A stretch of 55,493 bases of DNA, from the IMG/VR virus record IMGVR_UViG_2663763400_000006. One strand, given 5' to 3'. The position numbers and the translations under genes were made by a program. Positions within the stretch are counted from its first letter, which is position 1; every line of letters begins with the position of its first letter. The notes beneath the pieces were generated by a model. It was not told where the DNA came from, ran no database searches, and saw only the letters and a list, made by a program, of their open reading frames with translations. This document shows, one piece after another, positions 10,737 to 38,924 of this stretch. This DNA comes from a virus. Lineage: Duplodnaviria; Heunggongvirae; Uroviricota; Caudoviricetes.

Positions 10737-12263
10737 ATGAAAAAAGCCATAGCATATATGCGATTTTCATCACCAGGTCAGATGTCTGGCGACTCATTAA
10801 ACCGACAGAGAAGACTTATTGCTGAATGGTTAAAGGTAAATAGTGATTATTATCTTGATACCATAACATATGAAGATTTAGGATTAAGTGCATTCAAAGG
10901 AAAGCATGCACAATCAGGAGCTTTTTCGGAATTTTTAGATGCTATAGAGCATGGTTATATATTGCCAGGAACTACATTGTTAGTTGAAAGTCTGGACAGA
11001 CTTTCAAGAGAAAAAGTCGGTGAAGCGATTGAGCGTCTGAAATTGATTTTGAATCACGGTATTGATGTTATAACTCTTTGCGATAATACAGTCTATAATA
11101 TTGACTCTTTGAATGATCCATATTCATTAATAAAAGCCATACTTATAGCACAAAGGGCAAATGAAGAAAGCGAGATAAAGTCAAGTCGGGTTAAATTATC
11201 ATGGAAGAAAAAACGGCAGGATGCACTGGAGTCAGGCACGATTATGACGGCGTCTTGTCCGAGATGGCTCTCCTTAGATGACAAAAGAACGGCTTTTGTT
11301 CCAGACCCCGACAGGGTGAAAACTATTGAGCTAATTTTTAAACTCAGGATGGAAAGGCGCTCATTGAATGCAATAGCCAAGTATTTAAATGATCATGCTG
11401 TAAAGAATTTCTCAGGAAAAGAAAGTGCATGGGGACCTTCTGTAATTGAAAAATTATTAGCGAATAAAGCTCTGATAGGTATATGCGTACCTTCATATCG
11501 TGCAAGAGGTAAAGGAATAAGTGAAATCGCTGGCTATTATCCCAGAATCATATCAGATGATTTGTTTTACGCTGTGCAGGAAATTCGGTTGGCACCTTTT
11601 GGTATTAGCAATAGTAGCAAAAATCCTATGTTGATAAATCTACTTCGAACAGTTATGAAGTGCGAGGCTTGTGGTAATACCATGATTGTTCATGCGGTAT
11701 CTGGAAGTTTGCATGGCTATTATGTTTGTCCGATGAGAAGACTGCATCGATGTGACAGGCCATCAATAAAGAGAGATTTGGTTGATTATAATATCATTAA
11801 TGAGTTGCTTTTTAATTGTAGTAAAATCCAACCAGTTGAAAACAAGAAAGATGCTAATGAAACTTTAGAGTTGAAAATTATTGAGCTCCAGATGAAAATT
11901 AATAATTTAATTGCTGCATTATCTGTTGCGCCTGAAGTTACCGCTATAGCAGAAAAAATCAGAGTATTAGATAAGGAATTACGAAGGGCTTCTGTATCAT
12001 TAAAAACTTTGAAGAGTAAAGCGGTGAGCTCACTTGGTGATTTTCATGCTATTGACTTAACCAGTAAAAATGGGCGAGAGCTATGTCGTACACTTGCCTA
12101 TAAAACATTCGAAAAAATCATAATCAATACAGATAATAAAACCTGTGATATCTATTTTATGAATGGCATTGTTTTTAAACACTATCCTTTAATGAAAACA
12201 ATATCCGCCCAGCAGGCGATAAGTACTCTCAAATATATGGTTGATGGTGAGGTTTATTTTTGA
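10737..12263 (+). CDS. Large serine recombinase (DLP12 YbcK-like)
   Basis: 508 aa with N-terminal resolvase/invertase catalytic domain (AYMRFSSPGQ...SLNRQ) and a Cys-rich recombinase region (CEACGNTMIVH...YYVCPMRRLHRC); AT-rich. Confidence 0.85.
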   Translation: MKKAIAYMRFSSPGQMSGDSLNRQRRLIAEWLKVNSDYYLDTITYEDLGLSAFKGKHAQSGAFSEFLDAIEHGYILPGTTLLVESLDRLSREKVGEAIERLKLILNHGIDVITLCDNTVYNIDSLNDPYSLIKAILIAQRANEESEIKSSRVKLSWKKKRQDALESGTIMTASCPRWLSLDDKRTAFVPDPDRVKTIELIFKLRMERRSLNAIAKYLNDHAVKNFSGKESAWGPSVIEKLLANKALIGICVPSYRARGKGISEIAGYYPRIISDDLFYAVQEIRLAPFGISNSSKNPMLINLLRTVMKCEACGNTMIVHAVSGSLHGYYVCPMRRLHRCDRPSIKRDLVDYNIINELLFNCSKIQPVENKKDANETLELKIIELQMKINNLIAALSVAPEVTAIAEKIRVLDKELRRASVSLKTLKSKAVSSLGDFHAIDLTSKNGRELCRTLAYKTFEKIIINTDNKTCDIYFMNGIVFKHYPLMKTISAQQAISTLKYMVDGEVYF

Positions 12264-12374
12264 GTAATAATCACTTTTTCAACCGTGCTATAGTAAGAAA
12301 GTTAGGTAAGTACAATAAAATTATCTATCCTGAACGAAGCGTCCTGAGCTATGGTTTTACTATAGGGACTGCCA

Positions 12375-12692
12375 ATGGATGCTGGCGTTCTCGTTCTAGC
12401 AGTTCAACAATCCCCAATCACAAAACAATTCACTGATAACGAACTTTGCACACTCGCCTGGTTATGGCGAGCAGGGAATGTGATGTTAATTGCCTACCAG
12501 AACGTTACTCATCTTCTTCAGGATGCGGAGCATGGTGAAGCTGGTCACTTCACTTCCATCGAGCAAGAATATCCCCAGATACTCAACAGAGCGCGAGCAA
12601 TCCTCGTCCGAGAAACGGCACATGTAAAACTTCAGCCGTGGCAGGATGATAAGTGGAGTCGAGTATTGCCGTATTTGCGTCAAATCTGTTAG
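12375..12692 (+). CDS. Hypothetical protein
   Basis: 105-aa ORF with no recognisable motif; coding status uncertain. Confidence 0.25.
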   Translation: MDAGVLVLAVQQSPITKQFTDNELCTLAWLWRAGNVMLIAYQNVTHLLQDAEHGEAGHFTSIEQEYPQILNRARAILVRETAHVKLQPWQDDKWSRVLPYLRQIC

Positions 12693-12881
12693 GAGTATAG
12701 CCGCCAGCCATGAGTGTTGTATTAAAACAAGGATGTCTATATATGGGATAGCGAGAGTATGAATATCAGTTATTTTGAGAGTTAACTGATTGTGAAATTA
12801 GTTTTTTTCACAAACGAGTGGGGTTACTATGATGAGTGTTCTAATGCATAGGGAACACCTAATTTTTTCAATGAATTCAAA

Positions 12882-13826
12882 TTGATAGGATCAAAAATGG
12901 CACAACAGAGAACTACCTCCCTCAGATCCATACCTTTAGACTTAGATGTTAAGCAAGAGGCTGTCATTAACGGTATAGAAATGGGGGTACTCGATAACGG
13001 AATTCCGTACCTTACTCAGAATGGGTTGGCAAATGTTTGTGGTGTTCAGCGTTTGCGAATCAAGGAAATTACCGATGAGTGGGCTCAATCTGTTGAGAAC
13101 GGTATTTTCAAAAAAGGAAGAATGACTTTTATTGGTACATATCTTCTTAATGAAGGTTTTACAGATGAAAAACTTTATATACCAATAATTCGAAATGGTG
13201 TTGAGTACCATGCTTATCCAGATGTTGTATGCATGGCTATACTTGAATACTATGCCTTTGAAGCAAAACAAGCAGAAAGTGAGACTGCAATTAGATCTTA
13301 CAGAGAGCTTGCTAAAAAAGGCCTCAAGACATTTATATACGAGGCGCTAAAATATCAACCGGAGGACCCGTGGAGGCATTACCATGACAGAGTATCTTTA
13401 TTAAAAGATAAGGGAACCATACCTGATGGGTATTTCATTATATTTAATGAAATTGCAGGTATGATGGTAGATCTCATCAATGCTGGATTAGCGATTAATC
13501 AGCATACCGTACCTGATGGCAGTGTTGGTTCTTGCTGGGCGCGTCACTGGAAAGCAAAGGGGTTAGCAACAGAATTTGGAGAAAGAGTAGACTGTGAGCA
13601 TTATTACCCTGAAGATTTTCTTCAGGCAAGTTCCAATCCTCAGATCATTAATGCCTATCCTGATTCTGCATTGTCAGAGTTTCGTAGATGGTTTAAGCAT
13701 GAATATTTAACCACAAAGTTCCCACCGTATATTCTTAAAAAATCAAACGTGCTTCCTGGTGGTACAGAAGATGCTAATCGTCTGATAGAAGCTTTCAAAA
13801 AATCAGAGCTAGAAAATAAACCATAA
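12882..13826 (+). CDS. Hypothetical 314-aa protein (accessory gene in the nin region)
   Basis: Long AT-rich ORF with an upstream AT-rich leader; no domain I can assign with confidence. Confidence 0.5.
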   Translation: MIGSKMAQQRTTSLRSIPLDLDVKQEAVINGIEMGVLDNGIPYLTQNGLANVCGVQRLRIKEITDEWAQSVENGIFKKGRMTFIGTYLLNEGFTDEKLYIPIIRNGVEYHAYPDVVCMAILEYYAFEAKQAESETAIRSYRELAKKGLKTFIYEALKYQPEDPWRHYHDRVSLLKDKGTIPDGYFIIFNEIAGMMVDLINAGLAINQHTVPDGSVGSCWARHWKAKGLATEFGERVDCEHYYPEDFLQASSNPQIINAYPDSALSEFRRWFKHEYLTTKFPPYILKKSNVLPGGTEDANRLIEAFKKSELENKP

Positions 13827-14022
13827 TTGTTTTTTGGCTTTTGATTTTACATAATCATTTTGCCATAATCATGTCATCGGAGCCTGAACAACTCCGGTGA
13901 CTTCTGCGCTAAACGGGGACGTTTATGCGCACATACAATCCAAACTCTCTTCTCCCTTCACAGATGCAGAGATGCACCTGCGATTTTTTGCATCCAGCGT
14001 TTGACCTCTGCGGAGGTGAAGC

Positions 14023-14478
14023 GTGAATCTCCCACAAGATGGCATCAAATTACATCGCGGTAACTTCACCGCTATCGGTCGGCAGATCCAGCCTTATCTG
14101 GAGGAGGGCAAATGCTTTCGCATGGTGCTTAAACCGTGGCGTGAGAAACGCAGTCTTTCCCAGAATGCACTCAGCCACATGTGGTACAGCGAAATCAGTG
14201 AATACCTCATCAACAGGGGTAAAACGTTCGCCACTCCAGCTTGGGTAAAAGATGCTCTCAAACACACATATCTCGGTTATGAAACCAAAGACCTGGTTGA
14301 TGTCGTAACCGGTGATATCACCACTATCCAGTCGTTACGCCATACCTCCGATCTTGATACCGGAGAGATGTATGTCTTCCTGTGTAAGGTTGAAGCCTGG
14401 GCGGTGAATATTGGCTGCCACCTGACTATTCCGCAGAGCTGCGAGTTCCAGCTGCTCCGTGACAAGCAGGAGGCGTAA
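14023..14478 (+). CDS. ybcN: YbcN/NinB-like protein
   Basis: 151 aa (GTG start with GGAGG Shine-Dalgarno); matches DLP12 YbcN as recalled and occupies the NinB position. Confidence 0.6.
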
Positions 14479-14648
14479 TGGCTACACCGCTTATTCGTGT
14501 CATGAACGGACACATCTACAGAGTATCAAATCGTCGTAAGCGTAAGCCTGAGCCGAAGCCATCCGAAATACCAACACTGCTCGGATATACCGCTAGCCTG
14601 GTTGATAAAAAATGGTTGCGACTGGCAGCAAGGAGGAATCATGGCTGA
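14478..14648 (+). CDS. ninE: NinE
   Basis: 56-aa [35 protein letters not shown]... read from the sequence (too short for the ORF track); start overlaps the ybcN stop. Confidence 0.55.
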   Translation: MATPLIRVMNGHIYRVSNRRKRKPEPKPSEIPTLLGYTASLVDKKWLRLAARRNHG

Positions 14649-20483: not shown

Positions 20484-20678
20484 TCATCCATCATCACTTT
20501 GGATTGATGTATATGCTCTCTTTTCTGACGTTAGTCTCCGACGGCAGGCTTCAATGACCCAGGCTGAGAAATTCCCGGACCCTTTTTGCTCAAGAGCGAT
20601 GTTAATTTGTTCAATCATTTGGTTAGGAAAGCGGATGTTGCGGGTTGTTGTTCTGCGGGTTCTGTTCTTCGTTGACAT
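20484..20678 (-). CDS. Small conserved prophage protein (DUF3950/YlcI-like)
   Basis: 64-aa basic ORF in the segment between bor and cos, which resembles the lambda right end as recalled. Confidence 0.45.
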   Translation of the reverse strand: MSTKNRTRRTTTRNIRFPNQMIEQINIALEQKGSGNFSAWVIEACRRRLTSEKRAYTSIQSDDG

Positions 20679-21612: not shown

Positions 21613-25293
<3,681 letters not shown>

Positions 25294-25313
<20 letters not shown>

Positions 25314-26959: not shown

Positions 26960-26995
26960 ACCCTTCATCACTAAAGGCCGCCTGTGCGGCTTTTT
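26960..26995 (+). terminator. Hairpin plus T-tract between D and E
   Basis: ggccgcctgtgcggc followed by ttttttt. Confidence 0.4.
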
Positions 26996-27010
26996 TTACG
27001 GGATTTTTTT

Positions 27011-27256
27011 ATGTCGATGTACACAACCGCCCAGCTGCTGGCGGCAAATGAGCAGAAATTTAAGTTTGATCCGCTGTTTCTGCGTCTCTTTTTCCGTGAG
27101 AGCTATCCCTTCACCACGGAGAAAGTCTATCTCTCACAAATTCCGGGGCTGGTAAACATGGCGCTGTACGTTTCGCCGATTGTTTCCGGTGAGGTTATCC
27201 GCTCCCGTGGCGGCTCCACCTCTGAATTTACGCCGGGATATGTCAAGCCGAAGCAC
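27011..27256 (+). pseudogene. E: Major capsid protein E, 5' fragment truncated by an insertion
   Basis: MSMYTTAQLLAANEQKFKFDPLFLRLFFRESYPFTTEKVYLSQIPGLVNMALYVSPIVSGEVIRSRGGSTSEFTPGYVKPKH then diverges into 9 unrelated codons and a stop at 27286. Confidence 0.85.
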
Positions 27257-27365
27257 TTAGCATGGCTTTCTGAGGCTTTCGTGTAGTTGCTGGTTTTTAC
27301 ACTTAATCTTTTGATAATAAAGAATAAGTTTATCTGGTGCTTTCACTGAATTTTCCTCGTTATCT

Positions 27366-27418: not shown

Positions 27419-28654
27419 ATGGCTGGCGAGAACAAACTGAGCGACAAAGCGCTTAAAGGATATCTGGGGAAACCCAGAGAAAAGCAGATCACCATTGCTG
27501 ATGGAAAGGGGCTTTCTATTCGTGTGAGTACTAAAGGGGCTGTGAGCTTTGTTTTCTTCTACAGGTTAGCAGGTGGCCGGGCTGCTCCGGTCTGGCTAAC
27601 GTTGGGTAAATATCCTGATATGTCACTCAAACAGGCAAGGGAAAAGCGCGACGAGTGCCGTGGTTGGTTGGCTGACAAACGTGATCCGCGTATCCAGATT
27701 AAGATTCAGGCTGAAGAACGCTTAAAGCCGGTCACTGTGGAGGATGCACTAAATTACTGGTATGAAAATTACTGTAAGGTGCGTCGTAAAACTCATGCTG
27801 TAACGCTTGGCAGATTTCGAAAGCATATCTTTCCCTATATCGGTCATTTGCCCGTAAATGACACTCACCTATATGAATGGCTGGACTGTTTTGACCGAAT
27901 TAAACGTAATGCACCAGTTATGGCGGCGTATGTTTTTTCTGACACTAAATTAGCTCTTCGTTTTTGTCGGGTACGCCAGTACGCGACGTGTGATGCTTTA
28001 AAGGATTTGCGCATGAGTGATGTGGGGCAGATTGCAGGTAAGCGGGATCGGGTTCTGGATGAAGCCGAACTCGGCCAGCTCTGGAAGGCAATTTTTGTCG
28101 AGCCTGATTTAAAACTAATGTCTGAATACACGCGAAAAATGTTTGTGCTTTGTACAGTATTTGGATGTCGAATGAGTGAAGCCCGATTATCAGAATGGAG
28201 CGAATGGGATCTCGAAAGTTGGGTTTGGACTGTACCAAAAGATCACTCAAAAACTGGTGTTGAAATCGTCAGACCAGTACCTGAAATTCTACGACAGTGG
28301 GTAACGGATGTTCACGAAGAGACAAAACATACTGGTTATGTGCTGGGAAGTCTGCGAATTAGAGAAAGCGTAAGCAAGATTGGGGGGAAAATCGGTAAAC
28401 GTTTGGGCCATGAAAAACAATGGTCACTACACGACCTTAGAAGAACGCTATCTACTCATCTAAGTGATCTCGGTGTTGAATTTTATGTAGTAGAACAACT
28501 GTTAGGCCATGCGCTACCTGGCGTGGCAGGTGTTTACAACCGGAGTAAGTTTATGGCTAAAAAACTGGATGCTCTGGAACTCTGGACTACATATCTCAAT
28601 AGCATCGCAGGTGCTGATTCAAAAGTGACAATCCTCAAACAAAAGGTTGGTTAA
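27419..28654 (+). CDS. int: Island tyrosine integrase (P4/CP4-57 type)
   Basis: MAGENKLSDKALKG...GKGLSIRVSTKG N-terminus typical of P4-family integrases; C-terminal HDLRRT...LGHA...YNRSK catalytic motifs. Confidence 0.85.
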   Translation: MAGENKLSDKALKGYLGKPREKQITIADGKGLSIRVSTKGAVSFVFFYRLAGGRAAPVWLTLGKYPDMSLKQAREKRDECRGWLADKRDPRIQIKIQAEERLKPVTVEDALNYWYENYCKVRRKTHAVTLGRFRKHIFPYIGHLPVNDTHLYEWLDCFDRIKRNAPVMAAYVFSDTKLALRFCRVRQYATCDALKDLRMSDVGQIAGKRDRVLDEAELGQLWKAIFVEPDLKLMSEYTRKMFVLCTVFGCRMSEARLSEWSEWDLESWVWTVPKDHSKTGVEIVRPVPEILRQWVTDVHEETKHTGYVLGSLRIRESVSKIGGKIGKRLGHEKQWSLHDLRRTLSTHLSDLGVEFYVVEQLLGHALPGVAGVYNRSKFMAKKLDALELWTTYLNSIAGADSKVTILKQKVG

Positions 28655-28655
28655 C

Positions 28656-28883
28656 ATGAAAAAAATGGCAATTGTTGATAAAAAGGGTCTGGAGTACATT
28701 CCTAACATTGACCGAATGATCCGTGAGAAAGAATGTCGGGAGCTAACCACTCTTGCGAACAGCACACGCTGGAAGCTGGAGAAGGAAGGAAAATTTCCTA
28801 AGCGGATCAAGATTGGTTCCACTGCTGTTGCATATCGTCTTTCAGAAGTGCAGGCATGGATTCGAGGTGAGTGGGTAGTTTAA
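28656..28883 (+). CDS. alpA: AlpA-family excisionase/transcriptional regulator
   Basis: MKKMAIVDKKGLEYIPNIDRMIREKECRELTTLANSTRWKLEKEGKFPKRIKIGSTAVAYRLSEVQAWI, AlpA-like HTH; directly follows the integrase. Confidence 0.7.
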   Translation: MKKMAIVDKKGLEYIPNIDRMIREKECRELTTLANSTRWKLEKEGKFPKRIKIGSTAVAYRLSEVQAWIRGEWVV

Positions 28884-28952
28884 ATTATCTCAGAATAAAA
28901 TATTATGAATTACTGATTTGAGAATTTGTACTCAAATCAGTAATAACATTCT

Positions 28953-29489
28953 TTATAAGAGATTAAATCCAAATAAAGAGTAATCATATACCGGGGTGCA
29001 TTGCATTCCACTGAATATGCTGATGTTTTTTTCTGTTTCTATCCTTTTTTCAATAAGTTGTTGTATATTTTTACAGTACAATTTGTGTGTGATGTTATTA
29101 TCGTAAGCCTGATATAGCAACGTCAATGTTGACGCTAGGAAACATACAGATAAAATTAAAGTAACATATGCGGTTTTTTTATTTTTTGTCCATGATCTAT
29201 TTGTTTGTGAAATATAAAGAATTCTGATGTGGATAATGGTGAGAGACAATAGCAGGCCACTCAATAAAATAAGTATTGGGTTTGCGTATTTTATTAATGG
29301 TTGAGAGCAAAAAACTATTATAGCTCCTGTGACTGCGTATGAGAAAAAGGAGTAATTAAACTTCTTACTCCTTCTCTCAAGTATTTTAATTTCATCTTGT
29401 GTGGGGGTTTTAGATGCCTCTAATATAAGTTTATTGAATGTTTCTGTTATCTTGTTTTTTGTGTTTGTGGCTATTTTTTTTAGATTCAT
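28953..29489 (-). CDS. Unknown multi-pass membrane protein (island cargo)
   Basis: 178-aa ORF, extremely AT-rich, three to four hydrophobic helices; antisense to int and alpA. Confidence 0.5.
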   Translation of the reverse strand: MNLKKIATNTKNKITETFNKLILEASKTPTQDEIKILERRSKKFNYSFFSYAVTGAIIVFCSQPLIKYANPILILLSGLLLSLTIIHIRILYISQTNRSWTKNKKTAYVTLILSVCFLASTLTLLYQAYDNNITHKLYCKNIQQLIEKRIETEKNISIFSGMQCTPVYDYSLFGFNLL

Positions 29490-29839
29490 AGCATTCTAAC
29501 TCCCTTAACTTATTTATTACTTTCTCTTTATGATAAGAGAGGGGAATGACTTGGTAAAGTGATTTGTCATTAATAATGATAATCCTTGCGATAAATATTT
29601 CTGCAAGTTATTTATCTGTTTGTTGCTATCTTGTTAAGCGTTGGGTGTGGTTTATGTTTGGAGCGACTTTATTTAATCGTGATTTTATGGATTTATATTT
29701 ATATCCTGTAAGATAAGCGCATGTTAGTTCAGGAGTAGTGTCAGATAAAATTATTCGGAGTAGAACTACCTTTTCTGTTTATTGCCAGTATTTACATAGC
29801 AATGCGCCGTAGTTACTCACATCACGGCGCTGATACTAA

Positions 29840-30142
29840 TTATTCAGATTCTTTGGCTTTACGCCGCTGGAGTTCTTCACGAGCGACGGCTACGAGTTGC
29901 CCGATTTCCTCCGCTGCCTTGATGCCGATTTGTTCGACCTTAGCTAAGGCATCCAGTGAAGACACGAGGGGATTTTCTCCGCTTCCTTCTGCCTGGCGGC
30001 GGGCGATCTCACCGCGCATGGCGGTTACTATGAATCCGGCGTTGCTCTCGCCGTCCAGTTTTACGGATTCCATGCCCTCCATAACATCGTGGGGAACCCT
30101 GATCGTTGTCATTTGCGATTTTGCATTTTTGTATACAGACAT
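29840..30142 (-). CDS. Putative ribbon-helix-helix regulator (candidate island repressor)
   Basis: 100-aa ORF (MTTIRVPHDVMEGMESVKL...), divergent from the rightward island operon across a repeat-containing intergenic region. Confidence 0.4.
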   Translation of the reverse strand: MSVYKNAKSQMTTIRVPHDVMEGMESVKLDGESNAGFIVTAMRGEIARRQAEGSGENPLVSSLDALAKVEQIGIKAAEEIGQLVAVAREELQRRKAKESE

Positions 30143-30149
30143 AGTTAAT

Positions 30150-30260
30150 CACCAATTTGTTATGTGTATATCACTATACACAAAAGTGATATATAAAAAC
30201 ACTTGCAATGTATATCACCACAATATAATGTATATCTCACATTATGGTCGCTATGTATCT
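30150..30260. promoter_or_regulatory. Island divergent promoter/operator region with TGTATATCAC-type repeats
   Basis: tgtgtatatcactatacacaaaagtgatatataaaaacacttgcaatgtatatcaccacaatataatgtatatctcaca: four or more copies of TGTATATC(A/T)C in both orientations. Confidence 0.45.
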
Positions 30261-30350
30261 CACAATGATCGATTCATAAAAACGACGAAACCCGGCAGTG
30301 CGCGAACACTAACCGGGCTTCTAACCAAACCGTTAAACGAGGTAACGATT

Positions 30351-30716
30351 ATGGCTGGAACACAGCATACCCAAACTCACCCTAAATTTATATACACCTT
30401 TCTGGCACTACACCACGACCGCATGGCAGATGGAGCAACTACGGTACATGTAGCCGCTGACACGCTGGTTGATGCCCGCAAGATGGTTAAGGAGATGGGC
30501 TATACTGCGGCTTTCTGGAAAGGGCGTGAAGAAAACACGCTGTTTATTCAGAAATGCGAAAACAATTTCATCTGGCGTTTTATCGCCCTGAGTACGGCAC
30601 AACCGCGCGTGATTCACATCGTGGCCACCAGCGAACAGGAAGCCCGCCAGCAATCCCCGGCTGGTTGCGTGAGGGTATTCGCCGCCCGTATTCGTCAGGA
30701 GGTATGCCGTGCTTAA
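30351..30716 (+). CDS. Hypothetical protein, first gene of the rightward island operon
   Basis: 121-aa ORF beginning MAGTQHTQTHPKF; the ORF-track entry 29802..30716 is this gene with a spurious upstream extension. Confidence 0.4.
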   Translation: MAGTQHTQTHPKFIYTFLALHHDRMADGATTVHVAADTLVDARKMVKEMGYTAAFWKGREENTLFIQKCENNFIWRFIALSTAQPRVIHIVATSEQEARQQSPAGCVRVFAARIRQEVCRA

Positions 30717-30894
30717 AACCTTCCGTGTATTTGCCCGAGCGGTTAACCCACGAGGCCACACAATTGGTATCACTCAGAACGTGAAGGCTGTTAATGTTCA
30801 GACGGCTATTGCTGTGGTGAGAAGCGAATCATCAGAATATGGCTTATCACAAGTCATTATTTCAGCAGTGTATGAATTAAAAGAGGTGCATTAA
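30709..30894 (+). CDS. Hypothetical small protein
   Basis: 61-aa ORF, tightly packed with neighbours. Confidence 0.3.
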   Translation: MLKTFRVFARAVNPRGHTIGITQNVKAVNVQTAIAVVRSESSEYGLSQVIISAVYELKEVH

Positions 30895-31085
30895 TGCAGG
30901 AAATTACATTACACGAAGCCGCTGAACGTGCGCACCAGACAGAAATTATTTGCCGCCTTCTTGAGGTATACCCGAACAAAATTACAGATGCTGATATATC
31001 CGCACTGGCGAGCCTACTGGCGCGTCTTTCGGGAAGTGTCGCTAGTTTTTTGATTGAGGAAGAAAGTAAGCTGGTGGGGGATTAA
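30894..31085 (+). CDS. Hypothetical small protein
   Basis: 63-aa ORF, start overlaps the previous stop. Confidence 0.3.
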   Translation: MQEITLHEAAERAHQTEIICRLLEVYPNKITDADISALASLLARLSGSVASFLIEEESKLVGD

Positions 31086-31307
31086 ATGAATACAGAACGG
31101 GAAGTCTTTTTTAAATTGTTAGCATGTGCAGAAAGTTCATTAACTTTAAATAATTCAGCAAAAGCAATATTAAATATGTGGCTTGATTGCATAAATGACA
31201 ATGAAGATGCAAATATTGCTTATGGCCTGTTGTCACTTATTGATGAAGCAGCAGAAAAACTCAATGACGCAATAAATAGTGCCCTGTTATCAAATAAGTC
31301 GAGTTAA
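31086..31307 (+). CDS. Hypothetical small protein
   Basis: 73-aa acidic ORF. Confidence 0.3.
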   Translation: MNTEREVFFKLLACAESSLTLNNSAKAILNMWLDCINDNEDANIAYGLLSLIDEAAEKLNDAINSALLSNKSS

Positions 31308-31324
31308 GTCGAGGAATAAATAAT

Positions 31325-31624
31325 ATGGAAATGAAAAATTCTGGCTTTATTGCCAGCGGCCCCGCTCGGCCTGAATTTATGAACGGCGATATTTACCGCG
31401 ATAAATACGGCGGCACGGTAACGATTAAAGGCGTGGCAGAACGGCGCATCACTTACCGCCGTGAGGGGTATAGCTATGACTGCGTGATGCCTGTTTATCA
31501 GTTCCGGCGTGATTTTTCCCTGGTATATGCCGCACCTCGCAGTAAGCCCACCAGCAGGGAAAAAGCGCGGGGAAACATCCAGAAAATGAAAAGCATGATT
31601 AACGCATTCAGGGGCAAAAAATGA
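31325..31624 (+). CDS. Hypothetical small protein
   Basis: 99-aa ORF overlapping the primase start. Confidence 0.3.
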   Translation: MEMKNSGFIASGPARPEFMNGDIYRDKYGGTVTIKGVAERRITYRREGYSYDCVMPVYQFRRDFSLVYAAPRSKPTSREKARGNIQKMKSMINAFRGKK

Positions 31625-33372
31625 AACTGGCACCGAACTTAAAAAAACAGCCACGCGACAGACTGACAGAGGTAATCATCTTTGCAGGTAGTGATGCGTG
31701 GAGCCATGCGAAAGAGTGGCAGGAATGGGCGGGTAAACATATTGCCGCCGACGATGTGCCGCCTGTCGTGCTGGCTGATGAGCAACTGAAAAACATCATC
31801 GATTACCGGATCATTGATGAAGATCGTCAGTGTGTGCGTGTTTACCGCGCAGGACATATCACAGAGCACAGCATGACGCAGATTGTTACGTTACTGGCTG
31901 TGGCTGGAGTGAAGACCGTACACGAATACGCGGGGATTACTGACACCAGCCCCGTGGATTTATCCGACCAGTTGCCGCGACTCAAAGAGGAATGCGAGCG
32001 TGGGGAAAGTCTGGTGCTTAATCTTCCGACGAAGCAAAAGGCGCAACTTTCACAGATGGCAGACAGTGAACGTGCACAACTACTTGCCGATCGCTTTGAT
32101 GGTGTGTGTGTTCATGCAGAAAGTGAAATCGTCCACGTATGGCGCGGCGGGGTATGGTGTCCGGTCAGCACAATGGAGCTGAGCCGCGAAATGGTGGCGA
32201 TCTATTCAGAGCACAGGGCCACGTTCAGCAAACGTGTAATCAATAACGCCGTGGAAGCGTTAAAAGTTATTGCCGACCCCATGGGGGAGCCGTCCGGTGA
32301 TTTACTACCGTTCACTAATGGTGTGCTTAACCTGAAAACGGGGGATTTTTCTCCGCACTTACCGGAGCACTGGAGCACCACGCACAATGGCATTGAGTAC
32401 ACGCCACCAGTAGCAGGGGAAAACATCCGCGATAATGCGCCAAATTTCCATAAATGGCTTGAACATGCTGCAGGAAAAGACCCGCGCAAGATGATGCGTA
32501 TATGTGCCGCGTTATACATGATTATGGCGAACCGCTACGACTGGCAGATGTTCATTGAGGCCACCGGAGACGGGGGAAGCGGTAAGAGTACATTTACCCA
32601 TATTGCCACCCTGCTTGCTGGCAAACAGAACACCGTAAGCGCAGAGATGACATCACTCGATGATGCAGGAGGGCGCGCGCAGGTTGTCGGGAGTCGTCTT
32701 ATCGTCCTTGCCGATCAGCTGAAATATACGGGGGAAGGCACGGGCATCAAGAAAATCACGGGAGGCGATCCCGTTGAAATTAACCCGAAATATGAGAAGC
32801 GATTCACGACGATAATAAGGGCGGTGGTACTGGCAACCAATAACGACCCGATGATCTTTACCGAACGGGCCGGAGGTGTGTCACGCCGTCGGGTGATTTT
32901 CCGGTTCGACAACATTGTAAGGGAGGACGAAAAAGACAAGGAATTACCGGAAAAGATAGCGGCAGAAATCCCCGTAATTATCCGCCGCTTGCTGGCTAAT
33001 TTTGCTGACCCTGAAAAGGCACGGGCTTTATTACTGGAACAGCGTGACGGTGATGAAGCTCTGGCAATAAAGCAGCAAACGGATCCGGTTGTTGAGCTTT
33101 GCGCGGCGCTGGAGTTTCTGGAGGAAGCTCGTGGGCTAATGATGGGCGGTGGTGGTGACACCGTGAAGTACACGACCAGAAACAGCCTTTACCGTGTCTA
33201 TATGGCCTTCATGGCATATACAGGAAAGGGGAAATGTTTGAGCGTGAATGAGTTCGGAAAGGCTATGAGGTCAGCGGCGAAAGTTTACGGATATGAATAT
33301 ATTACGCGAAAAGTTAAGGGAGTCACGCAGACCAACGCAACGACTACTGATGATTGCGATGCGTTTTTATAA
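31621..33372 (+). CDS. Primase-helicase replication protein (D5_N / P4 alpha-like)
   Basis: 583 aa with Walker A GDGGSGKST and downstream helicase-like motifs. Confidence 0.8.
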   Translation: MKLAPNLKKQPRDRLTEVIIFAGSDAWSHAKEWQEWAGKHIAADDVPPVVLADEQLKNIIDYRIIDEDRQCVRVYRAGHITEHSMTQIVTLLAVAGVKTVHEYAGITDTSPVDLSDQLPRLKEECERGESLVLNLPTKQKAQLSQMADSERAQLLADRFDGVCVHAESEIVHVWRGGVWCPVSTMELSREMVAIYSEHRATFSKRVINNAVEALKVIADPMGEPSGDLLPFTNGVLNLKTGDFSPHLPEHWSTTHNGIEYTPPVAGENIRDNAPNFHKWLEHAAGKDPRKMMRICAALYMIMANRYDWQMFIEATGDGGSGKSTFTHIATLLAGKQNTVSAEMTSLDDAGGRAQVVGSRLIVLADQLKYTGEGTGIKKITGGDPVEINPKYEKRFTTIIRAVVLATNNDPMIFTERAGGVSRRRVIFRFDNIVREDEKDKELPEKIAAEIPVIIRRLLANFADPEKARALLLEQRDGDEALAIKQQTDPVVELCAALEFLEEARGLMMGGGGDTVKYTTRNSLYRVYMAFMAYTGKGKCLSVNEFGKAMRSAAKVYGYEYITRKVKGVTQTNATTTDDCDAFL

Positions 33373-36470: not shown

Positions 36471-36584
36471 GACTGGTGGTGGTTTTGTTGTTCGCTATAT
36501 CTGTATGAATAATAAGAGAAAAACACAATCAACACACCAACCTGAAACAGTAATTAAGTTGTGGTATCAATGAAATTGCACCTG

Positions 36585-37112
36585 ATGAACAAAAAAAACA
36601 TGGCAAAAAGTTGCCGTGTAAGCGCCACTGCGTTCGATAAGTGGGGAGTGATTCCCGTCGAGCGTAAGGGCCGCGAGGCGTTTTATGATGTCGCCAGTGT
36701 AATAGATAATCGGGTTAACAATGCAATCAGCCAGATTACAAACGAAACGGGCGAGATTGATGATGATGAACTCCTACGAGTCAGGATCAGATTGCTGACA
36801 GCACAGGCAGAGGCGCAGGAGCTTAAAAACGAGCGCGAACGCGGCGACGTTATTGATACAGCGTTTTGTATATACGTGCTTTCAAAACTGGCGAGTCAGA
36901 TTTCTTCAATCATGGACAGCCTGCCGCTTGCCATGACAAGGAAGTTTCCCGACATGAAGCCGTCTATGCTGGATGGACTGAAAAAAGAAGTTATCAGAGC
37001 CTGTAACGCATGCGCAAAACTTGACGAAAACATACCGCTGATGCTGTCCGATTATCTGATGGAAACTGCCGGAAACGTACCGGATAAGTTGCAGCTGAAT
37101 AAAGATAAGTAA
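36585..37112 (+). CDS. Island small terminase homologue (Nu1-like)
   Basis: LLTAQAEAQELKNERERGDVIDTAFCIYVLSKLASQISSIMDSLPLAMTRKFPDMK aligns with prophage Nu1 LTRAQADAQELKNARDSAEVVETAFCTFVLSRIAGEIASILDGIPLSVQRRFPELE; start taken at MNKKNMAK. Confidence 0.75.
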   Translation: MNKKNMAKSCRVSATAFDKWGVIPVERKGREAFYDVASVIDNRVNNAISQITNETGEIDDDELLRVRIRLLTAQAEAQELKNERERGDVIDTAFCIYVLSKLASQISSIMDSLPLAMTRKFPDMKPSMLDGLKKEVIRACNACAKLDENIPLMLSDYLMETAGNVPDKLQLNKDK

Positions 37113-37405: not shown

Positions 37406-38141
37406 ATTCCTGATATTCAGGAAAACCACGAATCCGGGGGTTTTACTGGCGCGGTGTACACGGTGGAACGTATAGCGTTACCTGACTTATTGCATTGTAA
37501 AAAGTTGAAAGGCACGGCCTGTAAGATGGGATGTGGTGAGTAGTTTAAAGCTACCCGCAAATTCTTTCGTTGTGCTGGCACAGGCGGTTAAACCGTCGGT
37601 AACTGGATAATCCCCACTGGGGGAAAAGCTGGCTACATCCCTCACATCTGAGGACTGATAACGCAAAATTGCGTTGGCTGGCAGAGTGCAAATTTGCACG
37701 ATGGCCTAACCCATTGATTCTTTCGAAAACCCCCATTGGGGGAGAACGGGGGAATAAACCTGACTCATTGATTTTTCCACAATCCTTAATTTGAGGAAGC
37801 TGGATAGTTGCACTACCCAAAAAGTGCAGTACCCACATAGCTGCTTAATAGCGTTTATTTTTTCCGCACACCTCAAATCTGAGAAGGCCGGAATGATGAC
37901 ATGGCAGGATTATGATTCCTTGATTTCAAGGAGTCCTCCAGTGTGAAAATGAAATTATCTGGGCTGGTGGGTGAGTTGCTGATCTGCAACTCGGCTATGA
38001 AACTTAATAATCGAACAGCATGTAAATTCATTTCTGTGTATTGCAGCATGTATTGCAACATAGTCATTCTGGTAGAGATTATGCTCTATTTTTCCTCTTA
38101 TATCATTCACATACTTACGTCATTGACTCATGTAGCCGAAG

Positions 38142-38924
38142 CATGAGGTGAATCCGCAGATGACCCTGCGTCGCCTGCCGGATGAAGATCCGCAGAATCT
38201 GGCGGACCCGGCTTACCGCCGCCGTCGCATCATTATGCAGAACATGCGTGACGAAGAGCTGGCCATTGCCCAGGTCGAAGAGATGCAGGCAGTTTCTGCC
38301 GTGCTTAAGGGCAAATACACCATGACCGGTGAAGCTTTCGATCCGGTTGAGGTGGATATGGGCCGCAGTGCGGCCAACAACATCACGCAGTCCGGCGGCA
38401 CGGAGTGGAGCAAGCGTGACAAGTCCACGTATGACCCGACCGACGATATCGAAGCCTACGCGCTGAACGCCAGCGGAGTGGTGAATATCATCGTGTTTGA
38501 TCCGAAAGGCTGGGCGCTGTTCCGTTCCTTCAAAGCCGTCAAGGAGAAGCTGGATACTCGTCGCGGCTCTCATTCCGAGCTGGAGACAGCGGTGAAAGAC
38601 CTGGGCAAAGCGGTGTCCTACAAGGGGATGTATGGCGATGTGGCCATCGTCGTGTATTCCGGACAGTACGTGGAAAACGGCGTCAAAAAGAACTTCCTGC
38701 CGGACAACACGATGGTGCTGGGGAACACTCAGGCACGCGGTCTGCGCACCTATGGCTGCATTCAGGATGCGGACGCACAGCGCGAAGGCATTAACGCCTC
38801 TGCCCGTTACCCGAAAAACTGGGTGACCACCGGCGATCCGGCGCGTGAGTTCACCATGATTCAGTCAGCACCGCTGATGCTGCTGGCTGATCCTGATGAG
38901 TTCGTGTCTGTACAACTGGCGTAA
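38142..38924 (+). pseudogene. E: Major capsid protein E, 3' fragment
   Basis: HEVNPQMTLRRLPDEDPQNLADPAYRRRRIIMQNMRDEE... to the lambda E C-terminus; continues the 5' fragment exactly once the insert is removed. Confidence 0.85.

Follow-up and report, generated by a model that had tools for sequence, protein, structure and literature searches.

A probable two-layer switch in a phage satellite island: a candidate ribbon-helix-helix repressor, phased operator-like repeats and a putative antisense RNA

Introduction

How may a phage satellite that is carried inside a prophage keep its own replication genes off? We consider this question for a stretch of 55,493 nucleotides (IMG/VR record IMGVR_UViG_2663763400_000006; this whole stretch is called the window below), a lambdoid prophage in which a ~10.9-kb island of the type known as Gram-negative phage-inducible chromosomal islands (PICIs) is embedded. 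Within the island, a leftward open reading frame (ORF) of 100 amino acids (29840..30142) and a rightward operon, the first ORF of which has its ATG at 30351, face away from a 208-bp intergenic region; these coordinates, given in a preliminary description of the sequence, are correct. In Gram-negative PICIs, induction requires an activator, AlpA, which is expressed in response to the helper, and whether there is a global repressor has been stated to be unclear (PMC6092414). The region considered here offers a specific small candidate for such a repressor, together with its expected DNA target. From sequence comparison and structure prediction, we argue that the region is probably a lysogeny-type switch of two layers, an autoregulated ribbon-helix-helix (RHH) repressor and an antisense RNA. 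No description of a switch made of these parts (RHH protein, repeats and antisense RNA) was found in the literature searched.

Phased repeats over two divergent promoters

We begin with the repeats. The preliminary description had reported at least four copies of TGTATATC(A/T)C in both orientations. The count stands if one mismatch is allowed: five copies then lie in 30165-30263, four on the plus strand and one on the minus strand (30186-30195), against five scattered over the rest of the 55 kb. Exact copies number only three (30165, 30209 and 30229), all on the plus strand, and for them the claim of both orientations fails. A better consensus, TRTATMTCAC, is suggested by a relative (L029) and fits all five sites exactly (O1 to O5 in Table 1). 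It has six matches in the window where 0.20 are expected, a number that none of 100 shuffles reaches, and just one of these copies lies outside 30165-30263. When repeats are sought de novo in the 125-bp region, on both strands and with at most one mismatch, the best 9-mer has five sites, and 0 of 500 dinucleotide shuffles reach five. From start to start the sites are 21, 23, 22 and 23 bp apart, or about two helical turns. A possible sixth, degenerate site (GTTAATCACC, 30143-30152) may continue the series in phase, and it lies over the leftward gene's ribosome site.

The next question is whether the sites stand where a repressor could act. The -10-like boxes that had been described among the repeats do exist (minus-strand TATAGT at 30178-30173, TATAAT/TAATGT at 30224-30231), and the repeats lie over two divergent predicted promoters, which bears out the operator-like layout of the preliminary description. 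Between O1 and O2, on the leftward promoter (P_L), a block GTATACA(C/T)AAAA is kept in nearly all of the related loci compared below, whatever their operator type, and we read it as the -10 element of P_L. On the rightward promoter (P_R), a -35 element is found at an offset of ~64 from the start codon of the leftward gene in 21 of the 22 tabulated loci, followed by a 17-nt spacer and a TAnnnT hexamer; the TAATGT of the window (30226-30231) is the positional homologue of this hexamer. Repeated sites are found, in this way, over the core elements of both predicted promoters, an arrangement of the P22 Mnt type. Neither a LexA box nor a DnaA box is present in the intergenic region, so that direct SOS or DnaA control at the switch is not indicated. 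In six relatives (L007, L008, L010, L011, L013 and L023) a perfect DnaA-box-like TTATCCACA stands just after site 4, 3' of the rightward promoter.

The leftward protein

The protein encoded by the leftward ORF matches the YlcI/YnfO family (NCBIfam NF041551, 70.5 bits, E 8.5e-20, residues 8-49, with a curated cut-off of 30 bits). PGAP gives the identical gene the same name, and some homologues are named "Arc-like DNA binding domain" in the databases. The AlphaFold model has an extended N-terminus, helices at residues 18-27 and 34-53, and one long helix at 58-99; the AF2 model of the N-terminal domain has a predicted local distance difference test score (pLDDT) of 85.6. This predicted model contains the N-terminal strand and the two helices of the solved RHH proteins, and the earlier label "RHH-like" is supported at the level of the predicted fold. 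When the profile is aligned to Arc with hhalign, the Arc strand falls in register with KSQMTTIRVPHDV, the sequence similarity being marginal (P 0.0068, probability 5.6%). A sequence-profile search of the PDB gives just a weak helix-hairpin-helix-like match of the C-terminal part to Hef (1x2i, E 0.007), and at E <= 10 Pfam gives sub-threshold matches only (PSK_trans_fac in 18 of 28 members, best E 0.0011). Variation among the homologues is greatest in the N-terminal arm with the strand, residues ~2-14. For the YlcI/YnfO family, to which no function is assigned in the libraries searched, the role proposed here would be a first functional hypothesis.

Three observations stand beside this protein. 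The version of the model island EcCICFT073 (L026, 9474-9653) has 59 aa; the C-terminal domain is missing from it, and an internal deletion seems to have fused the RHH domain directly to the basic C-terminal tail. Directly after the stop codon of the RHH gene, the window has a hairpin GCGCCGT...ACGGCGC (29804-29830) that is shared with EcCICFT073 and is not followed by a T-run. The helper prophage has a YlcI/YnfO-family RHH ORF of its own (20484-20678, minus strand, 64 aa, NF041551 37.6 bits), located just left of cos (~20879); it is conceivable that this paralogue of the putative repressor cross-talks with the satellite's switch.

Related islands

Are the repeats kept in other islands, and do they follow the protein? 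To answer this question, we use 22 related loci: 12 from a scan of species-representative genomes (Xenorhabdus, Photorhabdus, Serratia, Yersinia, Scandinavium, Pantoea, Lelliottia and one Pseudomonas-labelled record), nine from look-ups of chosen homologues, and EcCICFT073. They span about ten genera. All 22 share a common frame counted from the start codon of the RHH gene, with sites at ~25, 47, 70, 92 and sometimes 114, and the elements follow each other in the same order: a site, the GTATACA(C/T)AAAA block, a site, TTGAC(N) at about +64, a site that fills the 17-nt spacer, TAnnnT, and an adjoining site. The module of the window is present in the model island EcCICFT073 as well, where GTGGGCCACACC direct repeats lie on either side of the -10 element. 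Conservation of the repeats, on which the preliminary description had made its proposal depend, holds for their positions, which are kept across genera, and not for their sequence, which varies in step with the N-terminal head of the protein. Examples of the site words of different lineages are GTGTGTTTCA, GTGTGATTCA, GGTGTG(C/T)ATT, GGTATTCAC, GGTGTAAG and GGTGTAATTA.

The same head goes with the same sites across genera. E. coli L014 (with TGTGATTCA sites) agrees with Yersinia L008, Citrobacter L024 with Xenorhabdus and Photorhabdus, and Enterobacter L029 with the window. Over ~250 kb of related loci, TRTATMTCAC occurs only in L001, whose island is identical to that of the window, and in L029, which has the same head and holds all four of its copies within the intergenic region. 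Operator words are shared at 0.82 among pairs of loci with heads at least 80% identical (22 pairs) and at 0.07 among those with heads less than 60% identical (143 pairs); for pairs that differ in the head and have at least 80% identity over the remainder of the protein, the value is 0.13. In a Mantel test over these loci, which are related by descent, 4 of 5000 permutations reach the observed correlation for the head; for the remaining part of the protein the number is 395 of 5000.

The comparison of the window with E. coli L014 narrows this further. On both sides the two islands are 96-100% identical, and only across 30100-30300 does the identity fall to 48-68%, a segment that appears to be exchanged as a block between near-identical islands (the specificity cassette in Table 1). 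Their alpA genes, icd-like genes and repressor C-termini are identical, and the RHH proteins differ at residues 1-22 and at one later residue. Across the loci, the sequence of the sites tracks none of the other candidates, namely AlpA, the Icd-like protein and the primase. With these set aside, the RHH head is the sole coding difference that travels with the operators.

A putative antisense RNA

We turn our attention to the minus strand at the far end of the intergenic region, where the 5' end of the icd-like gene, the first of the rightward operon, is overlapped by a putative antisense RNA. Its 5' hairpin (30356-30323) carries an anti-Shine-Dalgarno sequence in the loop and is followed by a terminator-like hairpin (30321-30287) and a U-rich tail. 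The folding energy is -33.8 kcal/mol (z -5.4) for the minus strand and -19.3 kcal/mol (z -1.75) for the plus strand. RNAalifold, given 19 distinct sequences, returns the two hairpins, in which 12 of the 19 pairs show compensatory (double) changes; standard pairs amount to 94.5% on the minus strand, with 33 G-U pairs, versus 85.6% on the plus strand, with one. In 14 of 21 loci a -10-like hexamer (TATGCT, TACAAT or TAGACT) keeps a constant spacing to the ATG, and the other subfamily has a TATGAT-like hexamer 6 nt closer. The modelled 5' end (30356) is ATG+5, 3 nt past the start codon, and K-12 symR starts at the equivalent base, as far as these predicted positions go. We consider it likely, from its conserved, covarying and strand-specific structure, that this RNA is a second layer of the switch, one that the preliminary description did not contain.

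The resemblance to symR is reciprocal. In sensitive mode the Rfam SymR model (RF01809) gives a full-length match on the minus strand (30356-30284, 35.3 bits, E 1.9e-4), and the covariance model R1, built from our alignment, finds K-12 symR at its exact annotated position (26.6 bits, E 2.4e-4). Membership in the SymR family is rejected, since the match is below the gathering score of 61 and the CFT073 and Serratia versions are unmatched; the RNA would be SymR-like in design and outside the family. R1 has a second match, weak but full-length, on the operators (28 bits; minus strand, 30165-30252), which we take to be a probable artefact of palindromic sites in AT-rich DNA. Nowhere in the window does an Rfam family attain its gathering score, C4 (RF01695), isrK (RF01394) and the int-alpA RNA (RF02996) included, and immunity of the C4/isrK type is on this ground rejected for the island. 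Elsewhere, in L016 (2280-2465) and L024 (2433-2618), where the same operon opens with Phage_ASH, C4 and isrK RNAs lie within that first gene, and the int-alpA RNA is found near int in L003, L004, L005, L010 and L013.

What would the RNA do? The gene that it overlaps is named "host cell division inhibitor Icd-like" by PGAP, and the operon is tightly packed, with neighbouring stop and start codons that overlap or abut. Made constitutively and ~75-80 nt long, the RNA would pair with those P_R transcripts that escape the repressor; with the ribosome site and start codon paired, the Icd-like leader would go untranslated, and tight coupling and polarity would extend the block to the downstream genes, in the manner of P1 c4 on icd-ant. 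It is the overlap of the genes that would make such a block polar. A gene that carries the annotation of a cell-division inhibitor would in this way receive a second brake from the antisense RNA.

The proposed switch

Combining the information from the repeats, the protein and the RNA, we propose the following model. RHH dimers would bind the five 10-bp sites T(G/A)TAT(A/C)TCAC. Those at O3, O4 and O5 would fill the P_R spacer, the -10/+1 region and the early transcribed region, and so hold the operon that runs from the icd-like gene to the replication primase off, while O1 and O2, which bracket the -10 of the protein's own promoter, would provide autoregulation. The C-terminal helix probably links dimers on neighbouring sites, as in P22 Mnt. 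Binding of the RHH protein to the repeats, repression, and expression of the antisense RNA are what we infer from the sequences.

For the flip of the switch, our favoured guess is terminator-resistant read-through from alpA or from the late operon of the helper; alternatively, a helper protein may titrate the repressor. Between the end of alpA and the end of a leftward membrane ORF lies a hairpin with a 14-bp stem (28909-28944), which is probably a two-way terminator that blocks int-alpA read-through unless antiterminated. Late transcription of the helper runs in the direction of the operon and antisense to the repressor gene. These two points together favour a read-through that would bypass P_R and hinder synthesis of the repressor.

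Several observations weigh against this proposal. No good or recognisable -35 element is present for P_L, and P_R of the window has a weak -35 and is not called by a simple consensus promoter scan. The leftward ORF has no Pfam family at E <= 0.01, and Foldseek finds no match with the full-length model of the protein. The common descent of the loci means that the shuffle and Mantel figures overstate independence. L028 has the strand residues QMTTI as in the window, yet its sites are TGTAC(C/T)TCAC, with a different central triplet, so that the N-terminal arm must contribute and the rule from head to site is not a simple one. The Rfam SymR model has no match in the CFT073 or Serratia (L007) versions of the RNA. 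In the model island, finally, an "ORF3" reporter needed alpA (PMC6092414), and with induction there dependent on AlpA, sensing of the helper need not fall to the RHH protein.

This last point leads to the strongest alternative, in which the RHH protein regulates only itself, perhaps together with the leftward cargo gene, while helper-activated AlpA is the real switch, driving or antiterminating transcription that enters the operon, and the sites on P_R damp basal expression. It agrees with the finding that EcCICFT073 is neither induced nor transferred without alpA, a gene with helper-responsive expression (PMC6092414; capsid-forming PICI (cf-PICI) preprint); with the hairpin at 28909-28944, which parts alpA from the rest as is expected if antitermination matters; and with the mere 59 aa of the EcCICFT073 protein. 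We nevertheless regard it as unlikely, though deserving of serious attention, because three of the five sites are on P_R and not on the protein's own promoter, in a layout conserved across genera. The two ideas are, moreover, compatible: the repressor may set the off state and AlpA may override it.

Could the hairpins 3' of P_R act instead in the sense 5' untranslated region, as an attenuator, a processing site or a stability element, with no antisense RNA at all? The hairpins are largely symmetric between the strands, and the tail after the stem is just moderately U-rich, both of which suit this explanation. The strand asymmetries given above do not: the G-U pairs are one-sided, standard pairing and folding scores differ between the strands, a -10-like hexamer stands at a fixed distance on the minus strand, and the similarity to SymR is reciprocal, with identical geometry. 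A sense-strand element as the whole explanation is quite improbable in our judgement.

The repeats could also be iterons, or sites for another island protein (the primase or an initiator, AlpA, or the Icd-like protein) rather than for the RHH protein. Phased direct repeats are typical of replication origins, and PHROGs labels Icd-like families "transcriptional repressor". Against this, the same repeats accompany unrelated primases (L007 and L009; L010 and L011; L002, L003 and L005), and primases 79-90% identical accompany different repeats (L024 versus L018; the window versus CFT073). The window and L014 have different repeats with alpA and icd-like genes 96-100% identical, and the sites bracket promoter hexamers. 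On this comparative evidence (primase type, and the window/L014 swap) the iteron, AlpA-site and Icd-site readings are rejected as very improbable. Hardly credible, and likewise rejected on comparative evidence, is a toxin-antitoxin pair in which the RHH protein is the antitoxin of the 178-aa membrane protein downstream and autoregulates through the repeats as its operator: before the membrane ORF there are a gap of 350 bp and a separate promoter-like site, the gene downstream of the RHH gene differs or is absent in relatives, PADLOC finds no defence-system match for the membrane ORF or the switch proteins, and the constant partner of the RHH gene is the divergent icd-like operon.

Implications

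Does the switch extend beyond the window? The same parts could form an immunity module that is shared by Gram-negative PICIs, EcCICFT073 among them: a YlcI-type RHH repressor, its hypervariable N-terminal head exchanged together with the matching phased operators as a ~250-bp cassette (the "immunity types"), and a SymR-like antisense RNA that gates an Icd-like leader. We put this wider claim forward tentatively, judging it somewhat short of an even chance. If it is true, the module would be the repressor that the field could not identify, with AlpA or helper late read-through as its override. An interchangeable cassette of head and operators suggests that satellites may have immunity types as lambdoid phages do, and these would bear on which satellites coexist in, or exclude each other from, one cell.

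The island and its helper

The prophage has its major capsid gene E in two pieces (Pfam Phage_cap_E, positions 1-78 at 26984-27286 and positions 94-328 at 38148-38924), because the island is inserted in it. A 10-bp direct repeat, AGCCGAAGCA, at 27246-27255 and 38134-38143 flanks the ~10.9-kb island, and gene E is interrupted after codons ...KPKH; this true att repeat was identified by following the reading frame of the capsid gene. Besides the genes in Table 1, the island carries a leftward membrane ORF, SSB, homologues of its own for capsid E and decoration D, one more AlpA-like gene and a Nu1-like gene. It shows the features of a helper-embedded Gram-negative PICI: int-alpA, a primase, the size, a co-oriented insertion in a late gene of the helper, and a short flanking repeat.

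Such an island and its embedding in a helper are already known. The helper-embedded PICI 11capE of E. coli NRG857c has been published (Tommasini, Mageeney and Williams 2023, PMC10111431), and it shares with the window island the size of ~10.9 kb, int and alpA, the insertion in a lambdoid capsid gene E, the 10-bp repeat, and E and D homologues of its own. The two are the same type of element, and very likely the same element. The published account differs in taking the non-hypothetical genes as unidirectional, and the leftward RHH gene, the repeats and the antisense RNA are not described there. It describes 11capE as lacking terS (PMC10111431), whereas the window island has a Nu1-like small terminase subunit at 36561-37112 on the plus strand (Pfam Phage_Nu1, E 1.4e-24; PGAP "terminase small subunit").

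Further observations concern the helper and the cargo. The portal gene of the helper (23712-25313) has one in-frame stop at codon 157 (24180-24182), so that the helper looks portal-defective; PGAP flags the identical portal copy of FDAARGOS_1296 as "internal stop", and the authors of the published study of 11capE reported that they could not detect virions of the helper (PMC10111431). L001 (FDAARGOS_1296), with an island otherwise identical, has an IS66 element within the primase gene (11930-14635), while the primase of the window is intact. On the minus strand at 28953-29489, in a stretch of 35% G+C and with its own promoter-like site, is the ORF for the 178-aa predicted membrane protein, which has no match in Pfam, PHROG, NCBIfam or PADLOC. 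Among the relatives, varying cargo (Bro-N, AntA, small ORFs) occupies the place between alpA and the RHH gene.

Table 1. Coordinates of the features of the candidate switch and of neighbouring genes (positions in the window; P_L and P_R, predicted leftward and rightward promoters)
Feature	Position	Strand	Remarks
YlcI/YnfO-family gene	29840..30142	-	100 aa; N-terminal ribbon-helix-helix head (~8-53), C-terminal helical extension (58-99); putative repressor
Specificity cassette	30100..30300		RHH codons ~1-22, all operators and the antisense terminator hairpin
O1	30165..30174	+	TGTATATCAC; overlaps -10/+1 of the leftward promoter; 20 related loci also have a site at this offset (~25 nt from start codon)
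P_L putative -10	30173..30178	-	TATAGT on minus strand
O2	30186..30195	-	TATATATCAC on minus strand; in spacer of the leftward promoter; offset ~47 conserved
P_R -35	30203..30208	+	TTGCAA; TTGAC(N) in relatives
O3	30209..30218	+	TGTATATCAC; abuts the -35, within P_R spacer
P_R -10	30224..30231	+	TAATGT (30226-30231, 17-nt spacer) overlapping TATAAT (30224-30229, 15-nt spacer)
O4	30231..30240	+	TATATCTCAC; spans end of the -10 and predicted P_R transcript start; identical word in the same place in L029
O5	30254..30263	+	TGTATCTCAC; early transcribed region of P_R; fifth in-phase site also in L009 and L029
Putative cis-antisense RNA	30277..30356	-	~75-80 nt; covers ribosome site and start codon of the icd-like gene
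Putative antisense promoter -10	30364..30369	-	TATGCT, 7 nt upstream of the modelled 5' end; inferred
Icd-like gene, first of operon	30351..30716	+	121 aa; NCBIfam NF033153, 72.4 bits, residues 73-116
Rest of operon	30709..33372	+	Three small ORFs, DUF4222 (31325-31624), D5_N/DUF5906 primase-helicase (31621-33372)
int	27419-28654		Island
alpA	28647-28883		Island
Primase	31621-33372		Island

Comparison with known systems

The types of mechanism in this model, RHH repressors and cis-antisense RNAs, are classical and not of a new kind. One of the closest parallels is immI of phage P22, with the RHH repressors Mnt and Arc, the divergent promoters P_mnt and P_ant, and the sar antisense RNA. In both cases a small RHH repressor is divergent from the operon that it controls (or, here, would control), the operators overlap both promoters (in the window, predicted ones), and a short antisense RNA covers a ribosome site in the controlled operon, as sar does. 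Mnt joins an RHH head to a C-terminal helical oligomerisation domain, for which the predicted long helix may be a counterpart here. The region considered here differs in having five phased 10-bp sites where P22 has one operator of 17-21 bp, in an operon that encodes replication functions and not an antirepressor, and in belonging to a satellite and not to a phage.

In immI of P1 and P7, the c4 antisense RNA acts on icd and ant, and P4 has immunity through the CI RNA; the corresponding Rfam family is C4 (RF01695). An Icd-type leader heads the operon there as in the window, and for the window we propose the same kind of control, an antisense RNA that blocks translation of the leader with polar effects downstream. 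P4-like and certain PICI relatives (L016 and L024) have C4 and isrK RNAs in the same operon. The window, in contrast, has no match to C4 or isrK, and its RNA would be encoded in cis, directly opposite its target, with another structure.

Close in design to the putative RNA is the SymR of symE-symR: ~77 nt, two hairpins, a 5' end 3 nt inside the target ORF, a -10 element 7 nt upstream (TAGAAT in symR), an anti-Shine-Dalgarno sequence in the first loop, and model matches that are weak but reciprocal. The target in the window is an Icd-like gene and not SymE, and there is no LexA box.

In its place on the island, the pair resembles Stl (Rpr) of the SaPIs and other Gram-positive PICIs, where a divergent pair stands between the integration module and the replication operon, with the repressor gene pointing to int. 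Stl and Rpr are phage-repressor-like proteins that are inactivated by helper proteins (PMC6092414). The protein of the window differs from them in its predicted RHH fold, and it belongs to the Gram-negative PICIs, which have been described as using the activator AlpA (PMC6092414).
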